Shown: positions 13,390-32,929 of the stretch, piece after piece
Layout of the letters: each line of letters starts with the position of its first letter
Numbering within the stretch: position 1 is the stretch's first letter
Assembly (NCBI GenBank): GCA_963806905.1
Contig: CAWEAA010000008.1
Span: 392,447-456,446 of the forward strand
Length of the DNA stretch: 64,000 nt
From: an uncultured Verrucomicrobiae bacterium
GTDB lineage: Bacteria > Verrucomicrobiota > Verrucomicrobiia > Limisphaerales > UBA11358
Reading direction: 5' to 3'
Notes under the pieces: model-generated
What the model was told of the DNA's origin: nothing
The model's database searches: none
What the model saw: the letters and a program-made list of their open reading frames with translations, nothing else
Translations under genes and position numbers: made by a program

Positions 13390-15351
13390 ATGAGTTCCAG
13401 CCACGACGTGTTCGATTCCGACATCCCGGAAATCTACGAGCTTCAGACCCATGCCCACGGTCCGGCGGGGAGCCTGCCGATTACCGAAGAAATGCTCCGG
13501 AACAGTCCCAGCGGCGATTTGTTTGGGATGACGCAAAACGCCGGCATGGGCTGGAACCCGGCCGAGACGGGGCGGAAACAGTTCCTGATTCTCAGCACGC
13601 AAGGCGGACTGCGCGCCCCAGACGGCAAACCGATTGCCCTCGGTTATCATACCGGTCATTGGGAAATCGGATTGCTCGTTCAGGCCGCGGCGGAGGAATT
13701 TCGCCGGTTGCAGGTCATTCCCTTTGCCGGGTTTTGTTCCGATCCCTGTGATGGCCGGACGCAGGGAACCACCGGCATGTTCGACAGCCTGCCGTATCGC
13801 AATGACGCCGCCATCCTTTTCCGGCGTCTCGCCCGGTCGCTGCCGCTTCGCGCCGGCGTGCTGGGCATAGCGACGTGTGACAAAGGGTTGCCGGCGATGA
13901 TGATGGCGGTGGCGGGTTTGCACGATTTGCCGTGCGTCATTGTTCCCGGCGGCGTTACGTTGCCGGCGGATGCGGCGGAAGATGCCGGCACGGTGCAAAC
14001 GCTGGGCACGCGCTTTGCGCATGGACTGGTTTCACTTTCCGAAGCTGCGGAATTGGGTTGCCGCGCCTGCGGCTCACCGGGCGGCGGCTGTCAATTTCTG
14101 GGCACGGCGGCGACTTCGCAGGTGGTCAGTGAAGCGCTTGGGCTTTCATTGCCGCACTCGGCGCTCGCACCGTCGGGTCAACCGGTATGGCTGGACATGG
14201 CCCGGCGCTCGGCCCGCGCGCTGCACCAACTGCATGAACGCAAACTCAAGGTGCGTGATATTCTAACCGATGCCAGCATCCAGAACGCGATGGCGCTGCA
14301 CGCCGCATTCGGCGGTTCAACGAATCTGTTGTTGCATATTCCGGCCATCGCCCACGCCGCCGGTCTGAAACCTCCGACGGTGGAGGATTGGATTTCCGTC
14401 AATCGCCGTGTTCCCCGGCTGGTCAGCGTATTGCCGAACGGGCCGGTTCATCATCCCACGGTTCGCGTGTTCCTGGCGGGCGGCGTGTCGGAAGTGATGT
14501 TGCATCTGCGCCACCTGGGTTTGCTAAACGTTGAGGTGATTACGGTCACGGGAAGAACCTTGGGTGAAAACCTGGATTGGTGGGAAAAATCCGAACGGCG
14601 CCGGCGTTTCCGGGAATTATTGAAGCAGCAGGACGGTGTGGACGCCGACGAAGTCATCTTTCCGCCGGACAAAGCCCGAGCGCGCGGCCTGACGTGCACG
14701 CTGGTTTTTCCGCGCGGCAATCTGGCGCCGGAAGGTTCCGTGGTGAAAGCCACGGCGATTGATCCGTCGGTCGTGGACGCGACCGGCGTTTATCGCAAGG
14801 AGGGCCCGGCGCGCGTTTTTGTGAACGAAAAGGACGCAATGGCGGCCATCAAAGCAGGGCGCATCAAGGCGGGTGATGTGCTGGTGTTGACCGGCATTGG
14901 GCCGATGGGCACGGGCATGGAAGAAACTTACCAGGTCACTGGCGCGCTCAAGCATGTGCCCTTTGGCAAACAGGTCGCGCTCCTGACCGACGCCCGTTTT
15001 TCGGGGCTTTCGACCGGCGCGTGCATCGGCCATATCGGCCCCGAAGGACTGGCGGGCGGTCCCATTGGCAAGGTTTTGGACGGCGACATCATCCGCATTC
15101 ATATTGACTGCAAGCGCAACGAGGGGAGTGTTGATTTGGTGGGAGAGGGTCAACGCCGCTTCACGCCGGAGGAAGGCCGCCGGGTGCTGGCAGCGCGCGG
15201 GCAGCGAAAGGATCTTGCGTCAAATGCTGCTTTGCCGGAGGACACGCGGCTTTGGGCGGCCCTGCAACTGGCCAGCGGCGGGACGTGGGCCGGGTGCGTG
15301 TATGACGCGGAGCAAATCATCGCAACGCTCAAAGCCGGCAGAAAAAGTTGA
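13390..15351 (+). CDS. IlvD/Edd-family sugar-acid dehydratase, YjhG/YagF (xylonate dehydratase)-like
   Basis: ATG 13390 lies in frame within ORF 12607-15351; the upstream part is antisense to the MFS gene. 653 aa. Motifs [10 protein letters not shown] and GPMGTGMEE and the length are typical of the long pentonate dehydratases. Confidence 0.85.
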
Positions 15352-15561
15352 ACCGATCAGAAATCCGGCAAGTCCAAACCCGGTTCGCACCGGCTTGGAT
15401 TCACCAAATTCGCAGGTGGCGAATTTTCGCCAACAAAAAGAATTTACTTCTTGCTGTAAACGACGTGTGCGTCATGTAGCGGTCTCGAACCCGCCCCGTC
15501 CATCAACGTTCCGACGCGGAGCCAGATACTTTGTCCGTTGATTGCGGATGGGATCGCGGTC

Positions 15562-16491
15562 CTAATCTCCGGCTTCGGCATTGCCCCAGAGGTTCATAAC
15601 GGCCTCGGCTTGGCGGAATCCAGCCGTTTCCTGGGATTCGCCTTCGGCGGCCCTGCCTTGCTGCAAGGCTTCTTGGAGGCTCGCCACCATTGGGTGGTCC
15701 GCAGGCGACGGTCCGGTTGCGCTTTCGGGATTGGCTATGGCAAAATCCAGCCCGGCTTCCATCCCTACCCTGAGATAGGCTTTTTCCAGTTCATGGCGGA
15801 CATGCTTCGGCGTGCCCCAGGCAAAATTGGACAGTCCCACCGTCAAATGGACGCCGCGCAAATCAGGGTCCTGACGAATGAGCCGCATGGCATCCAGCCC
15901 GATGTTTACCAGTCCGTAGGTGTCGGCCCCAACCGGGGCGAGTCCTGTGTCAATGAGGATTTGGTCGTTGCGCCGGCCTGCCTTGGTGACGAGCAGTTCG
16001 ACAAAATGCTTTGCGGCGGCATGAACATCCCGCGGGTTGAGGCACTGCGCCGTCCCACCGTCGGCAAACCGTTCCGAAGCCATGACGATGACGAGCGTGT
16101 CGTAGGCCGCCACCAGTTCGACCATTTCCTCGAGCCGTTCGCGGGAGGCAGCGATGGAATTCAGGATGGGCGCCCCGCCTTTGGAACGGTCATAATGCTT
16201 CAGTGCGACTTTGTGGTATTCCACGGAAGGGTTGTCGATGCAAAGTGGCAGATGCGTTACCTCCTGAATGGCGGGAATCACGTCGGGCAGAAAGGCCCGC
16301 ATTTCCTCCAGTTTCACCTGGATTTGCCGGGTGCCATCAATGTTGACATCCAGAAAATCCACGCCGAGATTGGTCTGTAATTTGGCCAGGTTTTGATAGC
16401 CTTCCAGATTCTTGGCGATGAAGGCGTTGCGGGCCCGGGCGTAGGCGTTATTGATCAAATCACCAATAATCCGTAGTTTTTTGGGGTTCAT
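15562..16491 (-). CDS. pterin-binding methyltransferase (methyl-H4folate:corrinoid methyltransferase, MeTr/AcsE-like)
   Basis: 309 aa with a DHPS-like pterin-binding TIM-barrel pattern (IIGDLIN, FLDVNIDG, PILNSIAAS). Last gene of the three-gene operon. Confidence 0.75.
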   Translation of the reverse strand: MNPKKLRIIGDLINNAYARARNAFIAKNLEGYQNLAKLQTNLGVDFLDVNIDGTRQIQVKLEEMRAFLPDVIPAIQEVTHLPLCIDNPSVEYHKVALKHYDRSKGGAPILNSIAASRERLEEMVELVAAYDTLVIVMASERFADGGTAQCLNPRDVHAAAKHFVELLVTKAGRRNDQILIDTGLAPVGADTYGLVNIGLDAMRLIRQDPDLRGVHLTVGLSNFAWGTPKHVRHELEKAYLRVGMEAGLDFAIANPESATGPSPADHPMVASLQEALQQGRAAEGESQETAGFRQAEAVMNLWGNAEAGD

Positions 16492-26001: not shown

Positions 26002-26841
26002 TCAAACAGGATCGTATTCCAAAGCATAGTCGGAGGGATGAAAAACTGCCTTGCGGGGCTGCACGTCGGGATATTCTTTATGAAGAAATTCTTTCATCGT
26101 TTGAATTTCTTTTAACGAAGTCCGAACACCAAAATCCACACATTTTACCCATTCCCGTTTGAACGGAAAAAAATCCGCAGGCTCGCCAGTTTGAAGTTGC
26201 TTAGATACGCAAAATTGAGGAGACGTAATCAAACGATATTCCCGTTCATACTTCCAAGCTAAACTTTTTACTTTCAGCATTTCAATAAGTGCCTTCTTGA
26301 CATGGTCACTCCCTAGGCCTTCTGTCAAATTAAGAACAATCCTTTCTTTCCGATAGTCAACTTGAACGACTTTGAATGGAAATGTTATGCCGTCTGGAAA
26401 TTCAAATCCAATTCTGGCTCCTTTGTGTTTATCAGCATAGTGAGACCAAATTAGAATTTCATCTAACCGATCAACGGTTGATTCTGAAAAACACACGACA
26501 CGAAGACTCCGGTCAGACATTGCCCCAACAAGTTTTTCTGCTTTGAGTTGCGAATAGCCGGATGCAAGATTTTTTACAAACGAGTCACGATTAGCTGCCA
26601 CGAACCTCTTCAAATCTTTTTTTGTCTTAATTGCTGGATTGTATAATTGCGCCACGGCAAAAAACTGATCGGTCTTAATCCTCTGTTTCAAATGATGTTT
26701 AGCCTTCGCCACAGTCATCGTTCCGACCAACCGGTATAATAGTTCAAAAGGATCGTTCAGAGAACTGACAGTTGCCGCCTTGAGGAGATTGTCTTGCAAG
26801 GTTTCGAGAGCGTGCGAACCAAAATAGCGAAAGAGGAGCAT
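26002..26841 (-). CDS. DUF2971-like hypothetical protein (AT-rich insertion)
   Basis: 279 aa from ATG 26841 (the ORF track uses TTG 26874). LFRYFG...VSSLNDPFE resembles the DUF2971 N-terminal motif. Clearly more AT-rich than its neighbours. Confidence 0.6.
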   Translation of the reverse strand: MLLFRYFGSHALETLQDNLLKAATVSSLNDPFELLYRLVGTMTVAKAKHHLKQRIKTDQFFAVAQLYNPAIKTKKDLKRFVAANRDSFVKNLASGYSQLKAEKLVGAMSDRSLRVVCFSESTVDRLDEILIWSHYADKHKGARIGFEFPDGITFPFKVVQVDYRKERIVLNLTEGLGSDHVKKALIEMLKVKSLAWKYEREYRLITSPQFCVSKQLQTGEPADFFPFKREWVKCVDFGVRTSLKEIQTMKEFLHKEYPDVQPRKAVFHPSDYALEYDPV

Positions 26842-26865
26842 ATTTTGACTTACAATTAACTCCAC

Positions 26866-26900
26866 AAATAACAAAAGCCGCCGGATTTCTCCAGCGGCTT
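26866..26900 (-). terminator. rho-independent terminator after ilvC
   Basis: On the minus strand: AAGCCGCTGG-AGAAAT-CCGGCGGCTT followed by TTTGTTATTT. Confidence 0.55.
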
Positions 26901-28178: not shown

Positions 28179-29054
28179 TCACTTTGCCGTTTCTGACGTG
28201 GTGGCTTTGTCTTTGTGCTCCTTCAGCCCTGATTTGGATTGCGCCTGCAAAAGTTTAGAAACTGCATTGTCGAGTTCTGAATGGCTTCTCATTGCTTGAA
28301 CGAGCCGTTCGGAAAATTCAGTCAATACGACTCTGATGCTAACAGCCAAATCAAGGCATTCTTGATCCGATTGCGCATGTAATCCTTCACTCAATGCGCT
28401 GTGTAAGAGCAAAAGCGGATTATGACCATCAAGCCGGAGAATTTCTGGAATGCCATCTCTTATAATGTCAACCGCTCTGCTAAATTGTATTTCGGTCTTT
28501 GCTTCGTTAAGTTTCTCAACGAGGGCAGGAGGCGCTTTGATACGATTACAGACGCGAATGATTTCGTCGATTAAACGGCCCTTTTGATTTTCAACCACTC
28601 TTCGGTAATAAGCAAACGCAGCAATTCCCATCCCTTGAGATTCGGCACGGCGTCCCTTCATAAAAATTTCCTGGTCTTCTCCGAGTAACTTAATCATTTT
28701 AGTCGGAACGCGAGGGCCGAAGGGTGGCCACTCGCCGAACTTAATCGCTTTTCCGTGAGGACCGTTTTTCGCTGCCCAAATTGTGACAGCATATGCTTTG
28801 TGAGAGTCGCCACAATTTCGGCAAGAATAATTAAGAAATAATTGAATCCACTTTTCTTGATCCTCTGCCCTTAATTGTGGGGTTGATGATCTGGTGTCAA
28901 AGAATCGTTCTCCATTGCAGGTGTCTGCTTCGCAAAAAAGATTCAGAGCCGGCCTTTGGATAATATAAGGAAGTGTCCCATCTGTCAGGTTGGCAATTTC
29001 GGTTTCCTGATTTGGGGGTTGAGATTCTAAAAAGAGTTTCCAGTCCATTTCCAC
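28179..29054 (-). CDS. hypothetical protein with N-terminal Zn-ribbon-like Cys pairs and a DUF4145-like helical C-terminus (AT-rich insertion)
   Basis: 291 aa. CEADTCNG ... CRNCG, and a C-terminal helical region (AAFAYYRRVVEN ... LLLLHSALSEGLH). AT-rich. Lies between ilvN and ilvC on the same strand. Confidence 0.55.
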   Translation of the reverse strand: MEMDWKLFLESQPPNQETEIANLTDGTLPYIIQRPALNLFCEADTCNGERFFDTRSSTPQLRAEDQEKWIQLFLNYSCRNCGDSHKAYAVTIWAAKNGPHGKAIKFGEWPPFGPRVPTKMIKLLGEDQEIFMKGRRAESQGMGIAAFAYYRRVVENQKGRLIDEIIRVCNRIKAPPALVEKLNEAKTEIQFSRAVDIIRDGIPEILRLDGHNPLLLLHSALSEGLHAQSDQECLDLAVSIRVVLTEFSERLVQAMRSHSELDNAVSKLLQAQSKSGLKEHKDKATTSETAK

Positions 29055-29063
29055 TTCAATGAA

Positions 29064-29537
29064 TTATTTCCGGGGCAGCGCGACCTTGCCCGTGCGCGTG
29101 ATTTCGGACACACCGAACGAATCCATCAGGCCGATGAATTTCTCCACCTTGCTTTCGGCGCCGGTGATTTCGATGGTGAGCGTTTTTGGCTGCACATCCA
29201 CGATTTTGGCGCGGAAAATGTCCGTAATCTGCATCACCTCGGCGCGCGATTTGGAGTCCACGGCCACTTTCACCAGCACCAGTTCGCGGTCCACGAATTC
29301 GCCCTCGTGGAAATCCTGCACCTTGATGACGTCCGGCAATTTGTTGAGCTGTTTGACGATTTGCTCCAGCGTGGCCTCGTCGCCGTGGGTGACGATGGTC
29401 ATGCGCGAGGTCGTCGGGTCCTGCGTCGGGCCGACGTTGAGCGTGTCAATGTTGTAGCCGCGGCCGCTGAACAGGCCGGCCACGCGCGTGAGCACGCCGA
29501 ACTTGTTCTCCACCAGAATTGAAATGGTATGTCGCAT
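29064..29537 (-). CDS. ilvN: acetolactate synthase small (regulatory) subunit
   Basis: MRHTISILVENKFGVLTRVAGLFSGRGYNIDTLNVG ACT domain. ATG 29537 inside ORF 29064-29561. Confidence 0.9.
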   Translation of the reverse strand: MRHTISILVENKFGVLTRVAGLFSGRGYNIDTLNVGPTQDPTTSRMTIVTHGDEATLEQIVKQLNKLPDVIKVQDFHEGEFVDRELVLVKVAVDSKSRAEVMQITDIFRAKIVDVQPKTLTIEITGAESKVEKFIGLMDSFGVSEITRTGKVALPRK

Positions 29538-29616
29538 AAAACCGTTTGGAAACGGAAGCACAGGCTAACAAGCCGAACGAATGTGGTCAATTTGCAAATT
29601 CAATTGCGTTACATCC

Positions 29617-30180
29617 TCATTCTGCCGATGTGGTTTTGTTCAATGCCTGCAAATCGGTGATTAATCGATTCCAATTCCAATCTTTACCCGGCTCGTATCG
29701 AATATTTTTTTGGCCACCGCTATGCCAGAACAAAGTGTAGGCTGGCGAACCAAGGTTGCCTTCATGAACTGCCCAGCGGAAATTGCGGCGTTCGGCAATT
29801 GTGACATAAGCACAGTAGATTTTGGGATTGCTCTGTTTGATGAGCGAGAAACATCGCTTGGTATTTTCAATTGTTGCTTCGCCAAACGAGCCGGTATTCT
29901 TAATCTCGAAGGCCGCGAATACATCTTCAGGCTGATAGAGCAAGCCATGTTCTGGCGCAGCGTCGGATTTGACGATGAGAAAATCAATTTCAACCGGAAC
30001 ACCTTTAATAAAAACATCCCGGCTGGAAGTATTGATCCCATTCTGTCGAAGGGCGAGCCGGATAATTTCGACCGAAACAGCACCTGAATACTTTGAACAA
30101 TTTTTGCCGGAATTGGCTTTTGCAAAATTTGCTTTCGCTTTCAGAACCAAATCCAGCAACTCATGTTCATTCATTTGCAT
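29617..30180 (-). CDS. hypothetical protein, possible PD-(D/E)xK nuclease fold (AT-rich)
   Basis: 187 aa from ATG 30180. Candidate D...ExK signature (VEIDFLIV ... AAFEIKN). No family recognised with certainty. Confidence 0.5.
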   Translation of the reverse strand: MQMNEHELLDLVLKAKANFAKANSGKNCSKYSGAVSVEIIRLALRQNGINTSSRDVFIKGVPVEIDFLIVKSDAAPEHGLLYQPEDVFAAFEIKNTGSFGEATIENTKRCFSLIKQSNPKIYCAYVTIAERRNFRWAVHEGNLGSPAYTLFWHSGGQKNIRYEPGKDWNWNRLITDLQALNKTTSAE

Positions 30181-30194
30181 GGAAGAAAATAGTC

Positions 30195-30278
30195 CCAAAA
30201 AATGGATTATGCTTTTTTCCCTCCGCCACCGTTGTCAATGGGCCGTGGCCGGGGCAAATCAACGTCTCCGCCGGCGGC
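30195..30278 (-). repeat. copy R4 of the 3' end of the HTH-MBL gene
   Basis: The minus strand reads PPAETLICPGHGPLTTVAEGKKHNPFF, against PPETLICPGHGPLTTVAEEKEHNPFF at the real gene end. Starts 10 nt after the PIN gene stop. Confidence 0.8.
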
Positions 30279-30288
30279 GCGCAGTCGT

Positions 30289-30678
30289 TCATACAGGAAT
30301 CCAGATGACGGGGAGTTTCTCATCGCGGTTGCGGCGATACCAGTTGAAATGGCTGTCGTCGGTGATGATTTTGAACGACGGAAACAATTCGCTGGCGCGC
30401 ACGAGGGTGGCGTCCGCAAAGTCCATTTCCGGCGCGTATTTTTCCAGCAGCGCGGCCAGCGCGGATTTTTCCTCCTCCACGTCCAGCGCAAAACGGTAGT
30501 CGCCAATGATTTTGGCGACGATTTTGAAGTCCCCGATCAAATGACTTGCTTCGGCGAATGCCGCCGTCGTCGTCCATAAACGGTCGTGGTATTGCTTGAA
30601 GAAATTCTGCGCCCACGCGCGGCGTTTGGGCGTTTTGGCGAACGGACTGACGATAAAACTGGTGTCAGCGAGAAACAT
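30289..30678 (-). CDS. vapC: PIN-domain toxin (VapC-like)
   Basis: 129 aa. Acidic residues in PIN-typical positions (FLADTSF, AEASH, DFADATLV, IITDDSHF). Overlaps the upstream antitoxin gene by 14 nt. Confidence 0.75.
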   Translation of the reverse strand: MFLADTSFIVSPFAKTPKRRAWAQNFFKQYHDRLWTTTAAFAEASHLIGDFKIVAKIIGDYRFALDVEEEKSALAALLEKYAPEMDFADATLVRASELFPSFKIITDDSHFNWYRRNRDEKLPVIWIPV

Positions 30679-30919
30679 GACGGCGGGCGATGGCGGCGCG
30701 GATTTGCCCGCGCTCGGTTTTGCCGGGCAATTCCGGCACAGTAAATCCTTCGCGGCTCAATTCAAGGCTGGCGGAGGACGAGGCGGCTTCCGCCCGCGAA
30801 GCGGCATCTGTGACGATTTGTTGCAGGAAGGCATAAGGCGAAAGGCCGCGCTGCCGTGCCGCCTTTTGAAATTTGGCCGCCACTTTCTGCTCCACCCGGG
30901 TTTGCAAAAGCATTGTCAT
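30665..30919 (-). CDS. RHH/CopG-like antitoxin (VapB-like)
   Basis: 84 aa from ATG 30919. N-terminal TRVEQKVAAKFQKAARQRGLSPYAFLQQIV looks like a ribbon-helix-helix. Genetic coupling to the PIN gene. Confidence 0.6.
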   Translation of the reverse strand: MTMLLQTRVEQKVAAKFQKAARQRGLSPYAFLQQIVTDAASRAEAASSSASLELSREGFTVPELPGKTERGQIRAAIARRHVSR

Positions 30920-30963
30920 ACACAAAGTGTAATCTTCGTATCAAGAATGTCAACAACCACAAA

Positions 30964-31046
30964 CCAAAAACGGGATTGTGTTCTTTTCCCTTTGCTACGG
31001 CCGCCAACGGACCGCGGTCATGGCAAATCAAGGTTTCCTGCGGCGG
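30964..31046 (-). repeat. copy R3 of the 3' end of the HTH-MBL gene
   Basis: The minus strand reads PPQETLICHDRGPLAAVAKGKEHNPVF. Confidence 0.75.
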
Positions 31047-31103
31047 ATGTTCGTCCCGATACATCCGAATTGAGATGCCGAGGAATCGGCTGATTTCAGG
31101 CAT
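31041..31103 (-). pseudogene. 5' remnant of a DUF4160-type gene, truncated at repeat R3
   Basis: MPEISRFLGISIRMYRDEHPP matches the DUF4160 N-terminus (MP.I..F.G..I.MY..DH.PPH). The reading frame then runs straight into the MBL-tail repeat. Confidence 0.6.
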
Positions 31104-31380
31104 GGACGGGTTGCGGTTTTTGATCCGACAACGCTTCCGGTTTTTGGCCGGTCACTTGCAGCCAGAGCGAATCGGGACAGAAATCAAGCTGGTCGTTCCA
31201 GAGCAGTTCACCGCAATCGCCGATACGCGCTTTGCAAAAATTCTCGTAGCTGTTCCACGAGGCATAAATACCCGTGCGCGGTTTTTTGGAAAAATCCACC
31301 TCGCCCTCAACGCCATCGTTGAAGCGCAACCAGACGCGGTAATTATCCAGAACCTTTAATGCGGTGATTTTTTTCATCAC
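31096..31380 (-). CDS. DUF2442-like small protein
   Basis: 94 aa; ITALKVLDNYRVWLRFNDGVEGEVDFS ... GELLWNDQLDFCPDSLW resembles DUF2442, the usual partner of DUF4160. Confidence 0.65.
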   Translation of the reverse strand: MMKKITALKVLDNYRVWLRFNDGVEGEVDFSKKPRTGIYASWNSYENFCKARIGDCGELLWNDQLDFCPDSLWLQVTGQKPEALSDQKPQPVHA

Positions 31381-31456
31381 AATTCCATCCTACAACAATG
31401 CAGGGGCGCATTCAACTCAAAATCCACAACCGAACTCGCGAATTTAAAAGATAAAT

Positions 31457-31526
31457 CGTGGTTTTTTCTTCCGCGACCGTCGTCAACGGATTGAGCCATG
31501 CGGAAGGCGATGGTTTCGTTTGCGGG
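31457..31526 (-). repeat. copy R2 of the 3' end of the HTH-MBL gene (degenerate arms, exact core)
   Basis: The 26-nt TTTTCTTCCGCGACCGTCGTCAACGG at 31464-31489 is identical to 32091-32116. The flanks are diverged. Confidence 0.75.
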
Positions 31527-31533
31527 AAACCGA

Positions 31534-31812
31534 TTAAAAATACGCGTCCACCACCCGCGTCAGGCGCTCGTTCACAAAGATCGTGTTGTGGTGGCCAAAC
31601 AGCGGTTTGCGCCGTTTCTCAATCCGTACGTCCGATTTCTCCGCGCCATCAATTACGAAGTGGTAAACCTCATGGACCGGTTCGTTGAAAATGCGTGTGG
31701 ATTGTAAAATCGGCCGGTCGTCCACGCGGATGACCAGGGTGCCGCGAAGCTGGTTGAAGTTGAATTCGACGAGGTGTTTGTCTGTGTTGCCAATCTCCAA
31801 AGTGAATCTCAT
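31534..31812 (-). CDS. hypothetical small protein (92 aa)
   Basis: ORF between repeat copies R1 and R2. No motif recognised. Confidence 0.45.
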   Translation of the reverse strand: MRFTLEIGNTDKHLVEFNFNQLRGTLVIRVDDRPILQSTRIFNEPVHEVYHFVIDGAEKSDVRIEKRRKPLFGHHNTIFVNERLTRVVDAYF

Positions 31813-32068
31813 AAGTCGTGGGCTTGTGCCCGGTTTTCACAAGGCGCAATCCTTGTGCCACCTGTACGGCGAGTCTCATTCGCAATGCCCGCCGCCAGCA
31901 GGCAGGAAGCGATATGCTTTGGCAATTGTTGCCCGCTGGCAAATTCGGGTTGTGACTGGAGAAAAACCGCGGCTTTAACTTTAATCGTAGGCTGAAGATT
32001 GCGAAATGTGTCCCGATGGTCACCTGGCAGTGTCCAATTTTTGCTTTGCCAATCGAACCATCGGTAAA

Positions 32069-32150
32069 TCAAAAGAACGGATTGTGTTCCTTTTCTTCCG
32101 CGACCGTCGTCAACGGGCCGTGGCCGGGACAAATCAGCGTTTCCGGCGGC
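32069..32150 (-). repeat. copy R1 (the functional 3' end of the MBL gene) of the four-copy repeat
   Basis: Aligns by eye with 31457-31526, 30964-31046 and 30195-30278. Confidence 0.8.
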
Positions 32151-32929
32151 AGCGATAAAATCTGTTCGCGCACTTTTTGCCGCGCCAAATCCCATGACTG
32201 GTTGCCCCGTCCAATCGAGCCGGCGAAAATCGCGTCGCCCACGATGGCCACGTGCGGTGCGTCCTCCTGCCAGTTGCCGACGATGTAGGTCACGCCGTCC
32301 TCCGCGTGGCCGGGCGTTTCGCGATGCGTGATGCGCAGCCCGCCAAGATGGACGATTTCGCTTGGTTTGTTGCGCTGGTCCACCGGCGCGTTTTTGGAAC
32401 CGCTGTGCAACCGCACTTTCGGCCACGCCTCGCGGATTTTTGGCAGCGCTTCCACGTGATCATAGTGCGAGTGCGTGATAAAAATGTGCCGCAGCACGAG
32501 CTGGTTTTCGGCGATGCAATCCAGAATCGGTTTCGCGTCAAAGCCGGTGTCAAACAGCGCTGCGTCGCGCGTGACTTCATCCCAAACCAGATAACAATTC
32601 ACAGCCATGCCGTCGCCGGCGGTGGTGAACACGCGCAATTCACGCCAGACGCTCAAATCCTTTTCCGCCGGCAGCCAGCCATGGGCAAGGCCTTCCAGTT
32701 TGGCCGGATTTAAACCGACCAGCCGGGCGAGCGCGGCAACGTCGGGTCGTTTGCCAGTTTGTCCGCTTTCTTCGAGTCCGGAAAGTTCGGCTTCGGAAAT
32801 TCCTGCGGCCTTGGCCGCGGCAGCCGTCGAAACGTTGCTCATCGCGCGCGCCTTGCGGATGATGTCGCCCAGATGGTCTTCGAGATTCACACCGGAACGG
32901 TAAGGGGCAAAGTTCGCCACCGCAAGCAT
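32069..32929 (-). CDS. XRE-type HTH + metallo-beta-lactamase-fold protein
   Basis: 286 aa. N-terminal HTH (LGDIIRKARAMSNVSTAAAAKAAGISEAELSGLE). MBL motif THSHYDH (HxHxDH). C-terminus PPETLICPGHGPLTTVAEEKEHNPFF. Confidence 0.8.
   Translation of the reverse strand: MLAVANFAPYRSGVNLEDHLGDIIRKARAMSNVSTAAAAKAAGISEAELSGLEESGQTGKRPDVAALARLVGLNPAKLEGLAHGWLPAEKDLSVWRELRVFTTAGDGMAVNCYLVWDEVTRDAALFDTGFDAKPILDCIAENQLVLRHIFITHSHYDHVEALPKIREAWPKVRLHSGSKNAPVDQRNKPSEIVHLGGLRITHRETPGHAEDGVTYIVGNWQEDAPHVAIVGDAIFAGSIGRGNQSWDLARQKVREQILSLPPETLICPGHGPLTTVAEEKEHNPFF

Follow-up and report, generated by a model that had tools for sequence, protein, structure and literature searches.

Repeated 3' ends of a metallo-beta-lactamase-fold gene in Verrucomicrobia look like scars of recombination between lineages rather than marks of a dedicated integrase

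How do several copies of the end of one gene come to lie in a row behind it, with unrelated small genes between them? The question is raised by a locus in the window analysed here, a 64,000-nt stretch of one contig from an uncultured Verrucomicrobiae bacterium, in which a gene encoding an HTH(XRE)-metallo-beta-lactamase-fold protein (the MBL gene) is followed by three further copies of its 3' end, spanning its last ~50-85 nt. An earlier note on this DNA had taken the array for the product of repeated site-specific integration, with the copies as attL/attR sites. The comparison with related loci suggests another origin, as the copies look like scars of recombination between lineages and not like marks of a dedicated integrase. 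The features of the locus are listed below; positions within the copies are counted from the MBL stop codon.

32069..32929, minus strand, HTH(XRE)-metallo-beta-lactamase-fold gene (Pfam Lactamase_B 3e-17, HTH_31 1e-7)
32044..32154, minus strand, R1, the functional gene end (from about -86 through the stop, with ~25 nt of post-stop sequence)
31846..31860, minus strand, TGGCAC-N5-TTGC motif, sigma-54-promoter-like, upstream of orf92 (26-locus alignment)
31534..31812, minus strand, orf92, a 92-aa module gene (weak sub-threshold FAIM1 match only)
31436..31490, minus strand, R2, displaced MBL end (about -45/-55 to the stop; 3' part decayed)
31096..31380, minus strand, DUF2442 gene (Pfam 1.4e-9)
31047..31103, minus strand, 19-codon 5' fragment of a DUF4160 gene (full-length gene in relatives)
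30942..31048, minus strand, R3, displaced MBL end (from -79 through the stop into post-stop sequence; strongly decayed)
30926..30953, minus strand, TTGACA-16-TACACT, promoter-like site of the VapBC-like module (consensus match)
30665..30925, minus strand, antitoxin-like gene, weakly VapB-like (NCBIfam VapB E = 0.007, below cut-off)
30289..30678, minus strand, 129-aa toxin-like gene, PIN assignment weak (Pfam PIN E = 0.006)
30182..30280, minus strand, R4, displaced MBL end (-83 to the stop; 'LPAETLIC' allele type)
29617..30180, minus strand, AT-rich gene, predicted restriction-endonuclease-fold (PD-(D/E)XK) protein (AF2 model, Foldseek)
29585..29598, minus strand, TTTGCAAATTGACC, right border of the variable region (directly after the MBL stop codon in empty sites)
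29064..29561, minus strand, ilvN, the conserved right-hand flank (Pfam ALS_ss_C 3e-30)

All four copies described in the earlier note were recovered on the minus strand, both by a repeat search and by a profile derived from the 3' regions of 160 MBL orthologues. The repeat search returned an 83-nt family (30197-30279, 30966-31048 and 32072-32154; 71-81 % identity) and a 26-nt family in which 31464-31489 (R2) is exactly identical to 32091-32116 (R1), bearing out the core reported for these two copies; with up to three mismatches the 26-mer was present at those two places only, where none was expected (100 shuffles). The profile matched R2, R3 and R4 at E = 4.5e-6, 2.9e-14 and 2.1e-24, respectively. 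R2 had been placed at 31457-31526, but it occupies 31436-31490, corresponding to the last ~50 nt of the MBL gene, and is identical to R1 at 26 of 26 positions and then at 13 of 22, its 3' part being decayed. The remaining stretch (31491-31526) belongs to the orf92 module as its 3' UTR, being kept in loci without R2. Likewise, an extra codon attributed to R3 and R4 is absent; both come from 'LPAETLIC'-type alleles of other lineages. The ~25 nt of post-stop sequence in R1 forms part of the border between repeat and module. A possible decayed R2 was seen by eye in L002, L005, L006 and L083 (L numbers denote related loci), too weak for a claim.

The MBL gene is a conserved core gene of soil Verrucomicrobia, with orthologues 72-98 % identical in 160 Verrucomicrobia loci, and its C-terminus (…TLICPGHGPLTTVAEEKEHNPFF) is nearly invariant across 81 sequences (the window and 80 related loci). 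The space behind it is highly variable. A total of 162 related loci were examined, in MAGs and metagenome contigs of which some carry assembly errors, and 86 of these are bounded by ilvN. In the bounded loci the distance between the MBL gene and ilvN ranged from 41 to 4,981 nt; 15 were empty, reading TGA followed directly by TTTGCGATTTGACC, and inserts measured 0.45-2.6 kb. Rather than showing a fixed gene order without polymorphism, the modules were found singly, combined or not at all: orf92 alone in L002, L004-7 and L083/84, VapBC alone in L022 and L038, VapBC with the nuclease gene in L163, and other combinations in L008, L017, L086, L111 and L152. Their relative order was constant across all combinations, and genomes with ~95-98 % identical flanks showed three different states downstream of orf92. 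The proposed polymorphism of individual units and the cassette-like architecture at the 3' end of one gene are both supported.

The gene content had also been read correctly in large part, since the 92-aa ORF, DUF2442, the truncated DUF4160 gene and the AT-rich nuclease-like ORF are all present (Pfam; AF2 and Foldseek for the nuclease). orf92 was found in more than 25 loci (72-100 % amino acid identity), always beside a tail copy or the MBL gene itself. The TGGCAC-N5-TTGC motif is kept in all orf92-bearing loci and, as a consensus match, may act as a sigma-54-like promoter. Neither orf92 nor the nuclease-like ORF matched anything in Pfam above cut-off, NCBIfam or PADLOC. The DUF2442 protein shares 89 % amino acid identity with its counterpart in L008, and the gene is also present in L090, L111 and L113. 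A full-length 86-aa DUF4160 gene exists in L008, L090 and L111; that of the window was cut by a deletion and is fused to R3 at a CTGCC-NCCG microhomology.

The supposed VapB/VapC pair stands as regards its layout, with overlapping ORFs of 83/86 and 129 aa, whereas the domain matches are weak, the Pfam PIN match of the 129-aa protein (E = 0.006) falling below the curated cut-off and VapB reaching E = 0.007. The antitoxin-like gene, which overlaps the 129-aa gene, has relatives of 77-89 % amino acid identity in L017, L022 and L038, and the TTGACA-16-TACACT site is kept in these three loci and in L163. The 129-aa protein belongs to a tight family (107 clusters, JGI label 'predicted nucleic acid-binding protein') and itself gave no hit among solved structures that would confirm a PIN identity. 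When the 129-aa and DUF2442 proteins of the window were looked up by exact identity, nothing but short contigs of the same arrangement came back. The product of 29617..30180 is predicted to adopt a restriction-endonuclease fold (PD-(D/E)XK): its AF2 model has a pLDDT of 92 and matches NucC, BbvCI and PspGI in Foldseek, and residues D66, E92 and K94 are invariant in 28 sequences. No DNA methyltransferase lies alongside this lone gene.

Signs of a dedicated recombination system were sought in the copies and in the genes around them. Single-stranded DNA folds of R1-R4, on both strands, were no better than those of shuffled sequences (z -0.65 to +0.71), in line with the earlier description of an array without attC-type palindromes, and neither an inverted repeat nor a hairpin was found in the copies. 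Decay of the internal copies was roughly uniform, with no preferentially conserved segment or core. The absence of an integrase from the array, also noted before, extends to the relatives: none of the 28 cluster representatives scanned (out of 39 ORF clusters from 86 bounded gaps) was a tyrosine or serine recombinase, one of them being an rve-type IS transposase. Neither a recombinase nor a reverse transcriptase occurred among the 25 of 63 Pfam families listed for the 50 other ORFs of the window. A diversity-generating retroelement was considered as well, but the MBL C-terminus is invariant, unlike the hypervariable gene end of such an element. Xer/dif-type sites were also considered; the 26-nt core appears to contain no dif-like dyad.

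Every undeleted copy extends to the stop codon, and the 5' limits fall at -134, -84, -79, -66, -55, -51, -36 and about -29. The 5' limit varies with the module upstream, lying at about -134 behind a YfhO-like membrane protein, about -84 behind the VapBC-like module, -66 behind DUF4160 and about -55 behind orf92. The junction between a module and its distal tail is constant while the next module changes: the tail of the membrane protein leads to orf92 in L086, L111, L093 and L047 and to VapBC in L017 and L152, and the R4 junction is found again in L017, L022 (truncated), L152 and L163. Tail plus VapBC corresponds to the gene end plus VapBC of L022/L038/L163, tail plus orf92 to the gene end plus orf92 of L004, and the counterpart of R3 in L163-like genomes is a functional MBL gene end. 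A check for microhomology requires the undisturbed sequence of the partner, available for two junctions, both involving DUF4160; at these two it amounted to 8-9 nt. In L111 the DUF4160 end ...GCTGATTTGA joins MBL ...GCTGATTTGTCC; the second, distinct junction is that at CTGCC-NCCG in the window. A fixed 5' boundary near -83, which at first seemed to be backed by R3, R4 and L017-Ra, was dropped because the start of R3 turned out to be the join left by a deletion within DUF4160; L017/L152-Ra, which start at -134 with an internal deletion, also count against it.

The copies are usually nearer to the MBL genes of other lineages than to that of their own genome, as exemplified by the copy in L134, which shares 97 % identity with the L002/L003 gene but 84 % with the gene of its own locus. 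Between copies and own genes, 81 synonymous and 43 non-synonymous codon differences were counted (5 : 0 for L163-Rb and 10 : 1 for L152-Ra). Since the differences are mainly synonymous, most present-day pairs are not in-situ duplications of one sequence, and duplication in situ followed by decay was rejected for most pairs. Similarity between the window and L163 is uneven, with identities of 72 % in surA, 73 % in the MBL body, 92 % in VapBC and 97 % (nucleotides) in the nuclease gene, and within the tail it rises abruptly from 73 to about 91 %. The latest exchange concerned the distal VapBC-R4-nuclease block, which shares 92-97 % identity with L163. R1 and R2, proposed earlier as attL and attR of the newest event, do not have that role, as the orf92-R2 junction is old and common to the window, L001, L008, L090 and L111. 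Some copies are themselves mosaic: the internal copy of L111 agrees with a window-type gene at 34 of 55 positions from -134 to -80 and at 97 of 105 from -79 to +25, and R2 shows the change from 26 of 26 to 13 of 22 given above. The breakpoints within copies, few in number, on which the variability of the crossover rests, lie at about -79 (L111), at -74 or nearer the stop (window R3 versus L163) and at about -20 (R2, window versus L001).

Similar duplications were found at other gene ends. In L170 the last 51 nt of rluA recur behind an RHH-PIN pair, and in L072 two copies of a 79-nt trpC start enclose a PIN gene, giving three independent sites (MBL 3' end, rluA 3' end and trpC 5' end) in about 2 Mb.

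We consider it probable, on the basis of these sequence comparisons, that the array grew through rare illegitimate founder events followed by homologous recombination in which the conserved tail served as portable homology. In a founder event, DNA of a related lineage carrying an 'MBL gene - module' pair would enter through MBL homology, and its far end would join illegitimately, at a microhomology of a few bases, inside the last 30-135 nt of the resident gene. The incoming copy would now complete the MBL gene, and the resident sequence from the join onwards, as far as about 10 nt past the stop, would be pushed downstream of the new module. This step may be called 3'-end displacement, alias insertion with long target duplication. 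Once bracketed by MBL sequence, a module could move by ordinary homologous recombination into any MBL-bearing genome, with the crossover anywhere in the conserved last ~80 nt, and the same recombination could exchange whatever follows a tail copy or remove the modules between two copies; the comparisons above largely document this spread. The displaced ends, which have no function, are seen to decay or to be shortened by deletions, as in R2 and R3. By the same reading, the space between the MBL gene and ilvN is probably an integrase-free hotspot of gene exchange, and the extra MBL ends are displaced gene ends. Toxin-antitoxin-like modules are perhaps over-represented because they resist loss.

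Integrase-driven accretion would explain the array by non-autonomous mini-elements whose attP mimics the MBL end and which are inserted by a tyrosine or serine recombinase encoded elsewhere, in parallel to the tandem accretion of CIMEs and IMEs or to integron cassettes. Direct repeats of the 3' end of a conserved gene, restored at each insertion, are the classic layout of an integrase target, the units are compact, and displaced ends derived from functional genes are predicted here too. Moreover, a segment from about -45 to -20 is common to all non-truncated copies and in several is identical to the resident gene at 25-26 of 26 positions, so that a short recombination core may lie there, and a recombinase encoded outside these 64 kb of the source genome may act in trans. 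Against this stand module-specific 5' limits from -134 to about -29, junctions at microhomologies, differing positions of the few breakpoints, the even decay of internal copies with no preserved core, copies without inverted-repeat or hairpin structure, and the lack of a recombinase in the scanned ORF clusters of the 86 bounded gaps. The duplications at the rluA 3' end and trpC 5' end, which involve unrelated sequences, would furthermore require several different site-specific systems. Repeated site-specific integration, as first proposed, is for these reasons judged quite unlikely. Eroded tandem paralogues of the MBL gene, arising by duplication within the genome and with unrelated genes between them by chance, are far less probable still. 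The copies are indeed MBL gene ends, some reach about -134 (L086, L111) and all keep the 3' end. However, the longest measures about 150 nt, each junction is tied to one module that itself stands directly after a single gene in other genomes, and both the closeness of copies to other lineages' genes and the jump in similarity to L163 inside the tail mark them as displaced or imported orthologue ends; this explanation, which the earlier note had held open and which was rejected here, is already largely refuted.

Another explanation is insertion promoted by the modules themselves. Addiction-type modules (toxin-antitoxin pairs, the nuclease) would provoke breakage or staggered nicking near gene ends, repair would insert the module with a 50-150-nt duplication, and homologous recombination would merely spread the result. 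Kobayashi's group proposed such insertion for restriction-modification units (PMC2853133). Repeats of more than 30 bp around an insert without mobility genes and a single repeat at the empty site agree with that description (PMC2853133), as would the occurrence of PIN-type or PIN-like modules at three independent sites and of a restriction-endonuclease-fold gene in the array. Yet a distal tail also accompanies cargo that is not of the addiction type, namely the YfhO-like membrane protein of 820 aa and orf92, and the differences between copy and resident gene are mostly synonymous. PIN toxins, in addition, are usually RNases and not DNA nucleases. We regard self-promoted insertion as unlikely. 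A broader form of the idea, to which we likewise give little credence, would have small addiction modules, above all PIN-type toxin-antitoxin pairs, act as self-sufficient mobile units in Verrucomicrobia that share an undescribed mechanism producing 50-150-nt target duplications at the ends of housekeeping genes, the resulting repeats serving as an integrase-free, integron-like cassette platform across lineages.

With displacement of 3' ends as the preferred reading, the locus can be set beside several known systems. Like CIMEs, integrons and CALINs, it is an array of units with direct repeats at a gene 3' end or fixed site, the units lack an integrase of their own, and toxin-antitoxin cargo is common. 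CALINs by definition lack the IntI integrase and attI. Unlike these systems, the array has neither a fixed att core or boundary nor attC-like folding; no integrase (Phage_integrase) was found in the locus variants (28 gap-ORF representatives), and no attC hairpin or IntI with attI was seen. Integron cassettes mostly lack promoters; the VapBC-like unit of the array carries its own promoter-like site, TTGACA-16-TACACT, which like the sigma-54-like site of orf92 is a consensus match only. For annotation, this calls for caution, as direct repeats of a gene 3' end are insufficient proof of a site-specific integrative element.

Minimal mobile elements of Neisseria and integrase-free hotspots of horizontal transfer between core genes (e.g. 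PMC3787668) resemble the locus in that varied whole-gene cassettes occupy one interval between core genes, are exchanged by homologous recombination in the flanks and lack mobility genes; here, too, differing cassettes lie between the same two conserved genes without mobility genes. In published descriptions of minimal mobile elements one allele replaces another and there are no internal repeats, whereas the internal copies of one flank at this locus would permit stacking as well as replacement. A conserved gene end used as portable homology would let accessory genes be stacked, swapped and lost across diverged lineages without integrase, transposase or attC site, offering one concrete route to the islets and hotspots between core genes in uncultured soil bacteria.

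The C-terminal displacement arrays of Rhs/CDI toxins and the T6SS effector-immunity clusters (Jackson et al. 2009; Kirchberger et al. 2017, PMC5361080) share more of the architecture. There, as at the MBL locus, a full-length gene is followed by orphan 3' ends, each still joined to its former downstream gene, the newest module adjoins the gene, and a homologous anchor in the conserved part together with an illegitimate join, without integrase, has been proposed. The displaced ends of those systems specify variable toxin domains, with immunity partners as the genes retained behind them, so that selection explains the arrays. The MBL 3' end, in contrast, is conserved and encodes nothing special, its C-terminus being nearly invariant, and the cargo is unrelated to the gene. 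The locus would thus extend C-terminal displacement beyond polymorphic toxin genes.

The closest likeness in the repeats themselves is to insertion with long target duplication (Nobusato et al. 2000; Furuta, Abe & Kobayashi 2010, PMC2853133), in which short inserts that encode neither transposase nor integrase, and often deviate in GC content, lie between long direct repeats whose length varies from tens to hundreds of bp; one repeat is present at the related empty site, often overlapping a gene 3' end. Each of these features was checked at the MBL locus and recurs there. The repeats described here measure 50-150 nt, above the 30 bp of that description, and are single at the 15 empty sites; the insert is below 20 kb and has no mobility gene. 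Published cases concern restriction-modification systems, single insertions and near-identical repeat pairs (PMC2853133). The MBL locus, which has no restriction-modification cargo, differs from them in its toxin-antitoxin-like pairs, lone nuclease-fold gene, YfhO-like membrane protein and orf92, and in up to four tandem copies from different lineages. Insertion with long target duplication, so far documented for restriction-modification systems, would in this way come to include tandem arrays as well as cargo of toxin-antitoxin-like and other kinds.

Genome and metagenome scans yielded 160 loci with orthologues of the HTH-MBL gene (32069-32929, minus strand; Pfam Lactamase_B 3e-17, HTH_31 1e-7; product ending ...PPETLICPGHGPLTTVAEEKEHNPFF*) at 72-98% identity; almost every one carries a Verrucomicrobia label. 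The source organism of the window is a verrucomicrobium of soil or peat, and the gene lies among housekeeping genes, with surA and pdxA to one side and ilvN and ilvC to the other. A repeat search of the window returned an 83-nt family (30197-30279, 30966-31048 and 32072-32154) and a 26-nt family in which 31464-31489 is identical to 32091-32116; the 26-mer had no further match at ≤3 mismatches, the chance expectation being none. A profile of the MBL 3' end, built from 160 orthologues (last 150 nt of the gene plus 43 nt downstream), detected the displaced copies R2, R3 and R4 with E-values of 4.5e-6, 2.9e-14 and 2.1e-24, respectively. Repeat search and profile together confirmed the four copies claimed in the earlier note, the gene's own end (R1) included, as well as the exact 26-nt core of R1 and R2, and the units between the copies match the earlier description. 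The position of R2, previously given as 31457-31526, was corrected to 31436-31490, as 31491-31526 is not MBL-derived.

In the 86 loci bounded by ilvN, the distance from the MBL stop codon to ilvN ranged from 41 to 4,981 nt (median 928); 15 were empty, with ≤157 nt reading TGA followed by TTTGCGATTTGACC... The occupied sites carried modules in various combinations.

Arrangements at the site in related loci (L numbers)
L002, L004-7, L021, L049, L083/84 and others: orf92 alone
L022, L038: VapBC-like pair alone
L163/164: VapBC, tail (displaced MBL end), nuclease gene
L008, L090: orf92, tail, DUF2442 with full-length DUF4160
L086, L093: membrane protein, tail, orf92
L017, L152: membrane protein, tail, VapBC, tail
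L111: four-tail array
Downstream of orf92, L083/84: 170-nt spacer
Downstream of orf92, L001: R2 and methyltransferase
Downstream of orf92, window: R2 and 1.9 kb

Further cargo comprised a UbiE-like methyltransferase, a GH5 cellulase, an acyltransferase, a TIM-barrel protein, a GNAT, a radical-SAM protein, an HNH endonuclease and one IS. The window modules were thus found separately in other loci, and the description of the site as a cassette array was right. So was the predicted polymorphism, shown by the empty loci and by three states beyond orf92: flanks were ~95-98% identical to the window, yet the content 3' of orf92 differed. As modules vary among near-identical flanks, the gene order is therefore not fixed.

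Several features of individual modules were also recorded. A putative sigma-54-promoter-like motif, TGGCAC-N5-TTGC (31846-31860, minus strand), lies ~35-50 nt upstream of orf92; this motif, with a ATTGGACA...GGGACAC element further upstream, was present at every orf92-bearing locus (the window and 25 others). The AT-rich nuclease ORF (29617-30180, minus strand; also L165 5001-5597) is a member of a rare, 27-cluster family in which D...E-x-K is invariant, and its product is confidently predicted to adopt a restriction-endonuclease fold, closest to NucC, BbvCI and PspGI. The family is scattered across Verrucomicrobia, Terriglobia and Chloroflexota, with one member between ftsY and ribD on a Terriglobales contig, and no methyltransferase partner was seen. 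After the last tail of L017 lies a low-GC pair (14239-15573, minus strand), a 311-aa ParA/MinD-like ATPase with a weak PADLOC match to PDC-M28B and a 130-aa ORF, a candidate defence or partition-like module carried as cargo at this site.

Integration by an integrase at att sites, as proposed in the earlier note, is not supported by the form of the copies. Copies free of later deletions all run through the stop codon and end between a few and ~25 nt past it, and the 5' limits, counted in nt before the stop, vary: approximately -134 in copies behind the YfhO-like membrane protein, approximately -84 behind the VapBC-like pair, -66 behind intact DUF4160 and approximately -55 behind orf92, the remaining copies beginning at -51, -36 and -29. 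Post-membrane-protein copies in L017, L152 and L047 have the same start as those of L086 and L111, followed by internal deletion or decay; after VapC, the tail is reduced to its first ~27 nt, fused to the ilvN leader, in L022, and none is left in L038. The DUF4160 gene is complete (86 aa) in L008, L090 and L111, joining its tail in L111 at a shared GCTGATTTG, whereas in the window it breaks off at codon ~20, running into R3 at CTGCC-NCCG; the junction of this one module with the MBL end thus has two locations, both at microhomologies. No conserved core was preserved, internal copies being 72-89% identical to the consensus throughout -80 to the stop. No recombinase was detected among the representative ORFs of clusters from the bounded gaps or, in the rest of the window, among the 25 of 63 families listed. 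The noted absence of attC-type palindromes held, single-stranded folds of R1-R4 being no better on either strand than those of shuffled sequence. The integrase/att mechanism is therefore disfavoured by the variable limits, the microhomology junctions and the lack of a core and of a recombinase in the gap representatives; some residual uncertainty attaches to participation of a trans-acting recombinase, or of the modules themselves, in founder events.

MBL genes of foreign lineages resembled most copies more closely than did the gene of the same genome, which typically ranked in the middle of about 160 for similarity to the copy. The L134 copy was 97% identical to the L002/L003 gene vs 84% to its own, and copy L152-Ra 91% to the L022 gene vs 85%. 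Codon by codon, 81 of the differences between copies and resident genes are synonymous and 43 non-synonymous (5:0 for L163-Rb, 10:1 for L152-Ra). This mainly synonymous divergence therefore accumulated in large part when the two sequences still terminated functional genes of different lineages. L163 provides the plainest example: its identity to the window is 72% in surA and 73% in the MBL body, vs 90.6% over 1,985 nt from 31037, within the tail, onward (VapBC 92%, R4 89%, nuclease gene 97%). In L163 the VapBC-R4-nuclease block directly follows the functional MBL gene, so R3 of the window corresponds to an L163-type gene end.

Judged by their sequences, the copies are mosaics. The module-distal tail junction is kept while the next module changes, and the 3' part of the tail travels with the post-stop sequence and the downstream module. 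Compared with a window-type gene, the internal copy of L111, whose own MBL gene has the membrane-module-linked ending ...NPFFA* as in L011, shares 34/55 positions between -134 and -80 and 97/105 between -79 and +25. In R2 of the window, L111 and L001, 25-26/26 positions between -45 and -20 agree with the gene, but only 13-17/22 in the stretch that follows; beyond about -20 the window and L001 copies differ from each other, as do the modules downstream of them. The L111 break and the R2 break near -20 suggest, in these few events, that breakpoints do not lie at one position.

The data fit a model of 3'-end displacement. Its first step would be a rare founder event in which incoming 'MBL - module' DNA is anchored by homology within the MBL gene and its far end is joined illegitimately inside the last 30-135 nt of the resident gene; the incoming end would complete the gene and the resident end would move downstream. 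The module would then have MBL homology on both sides, and ordinary recombination could place it beside any MBL gene, swap whatever follows any tail copy or, between copies, delete intervening modules. The conserved last ~80 nt would form a natural crossover zone in genes that overall are only 73-90% identical between lineages. Spread by ordinary recombination and decay of the displaced ends are supported by the mosaics, allele comparisons and decay series; the founder step we infer from the variation in copy limits and from two junctions at microhomology.

Self-comparison of 174 sequences (2.06 Mb) revealed two additional cases, both at unrelated genes, and the process is therefore independent of the MBL sequence.

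Related features at other genes
L170 560-610 and 1256-1305: repeated 51-nt 3' end of an RluA-family pseudouridine synthase gene
L072 951-1029 and 1716-1793: 79-nt repeat spanning the trpC start
L168 4784-5393 and L170 4763-5393: VapBC-like relatives at the gmk site, 14-16 nt from the next gene

In L170 the second copy directly follows an RHH-antitoxin/PIN-toxin pair (641-1254), and a Phd/YefM-like and ParE-like pair (1302-1890) comes next. L072 mirrors the MBL case at the opposite end of a gene, the 5' end: a ~690-nt insert encoding a PIN-domain protein separates a frameshifted upstream trpC copy from a downstream copy that begins the real gene. PIN-type modules recur as cargo, though so small a sample gives no ground for claiming enrichment. 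In other Verrucomicrobia, relatives (~70% identity) of the window VapBC-like pair with its 129-aa protein occupy the space between gmk and a flavoprotein gene, with no duplicated gene end in L168 or L170 and no room for a repeat.

Other inserts and repeats were seen besides. A 291-aa ORF of low GC (~0.43-0.47) between ilvN and ilvC (28179-29054, minus strand) had no match in Pfam, NCBIfam or PADLOC, was absent from L001-L080 by tblastn and had no detected flanking repeat; the ilvN-ilvC spacing is 159 nt in L163, and the ORF is another small insertion between core genes. The segment 26000-26900 (GC ~0.40-0.43 vs ~0.58-0.62 in adjoining genes), coinciding with ORF 26002-26874 (minus strand), may be another foreign insert beside ilvC. 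A 117-nt unit is repeated three times in tandem at 1562-1912, within ORF 1032-1955 (65-78% identity to the reference copy), and a ~77-nt element present twice in L036 (7596-7672 and 11388-11464), with self-complementary ends TGTAGGAGACGAGGTGACGAGG ... CTCGTCACCTCGTCTCCTAC, looks like a REP/MITE-type palindromic repeat.

Integrase-free processes of related kinds have been described. 'Insertion with long target duplication', defined by Furuta et al. (PMC2853133), involves units without mobility genes, flanked by repeats of >30 bp that are single at the empty site and in some cases overlap a gene 3' end; it is documented for restriction-modification systems, its mechanism not being established. 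A literature search for toxin-antitoxin loci with target duplication returned only the Kobayashi review, where the phenomenon concerns restriction-modification units. Displaced 3' ends with retained downstream genes are described by Kirchberger et al. (PMC5361080) and likewise in the Rhs literature cited there, such arrays being ascribed to homology-facilitated illegitimate recombination with no integrase. The minimal mobile elements of Neisseria are an analogue with replacement only. New relative to these processes are the cargo of toxin-antitoxin-like and other modules, the stacking of units in tandem behind a conserved gene that encodes no toxin, and repeats that clearly originate from different lineages.
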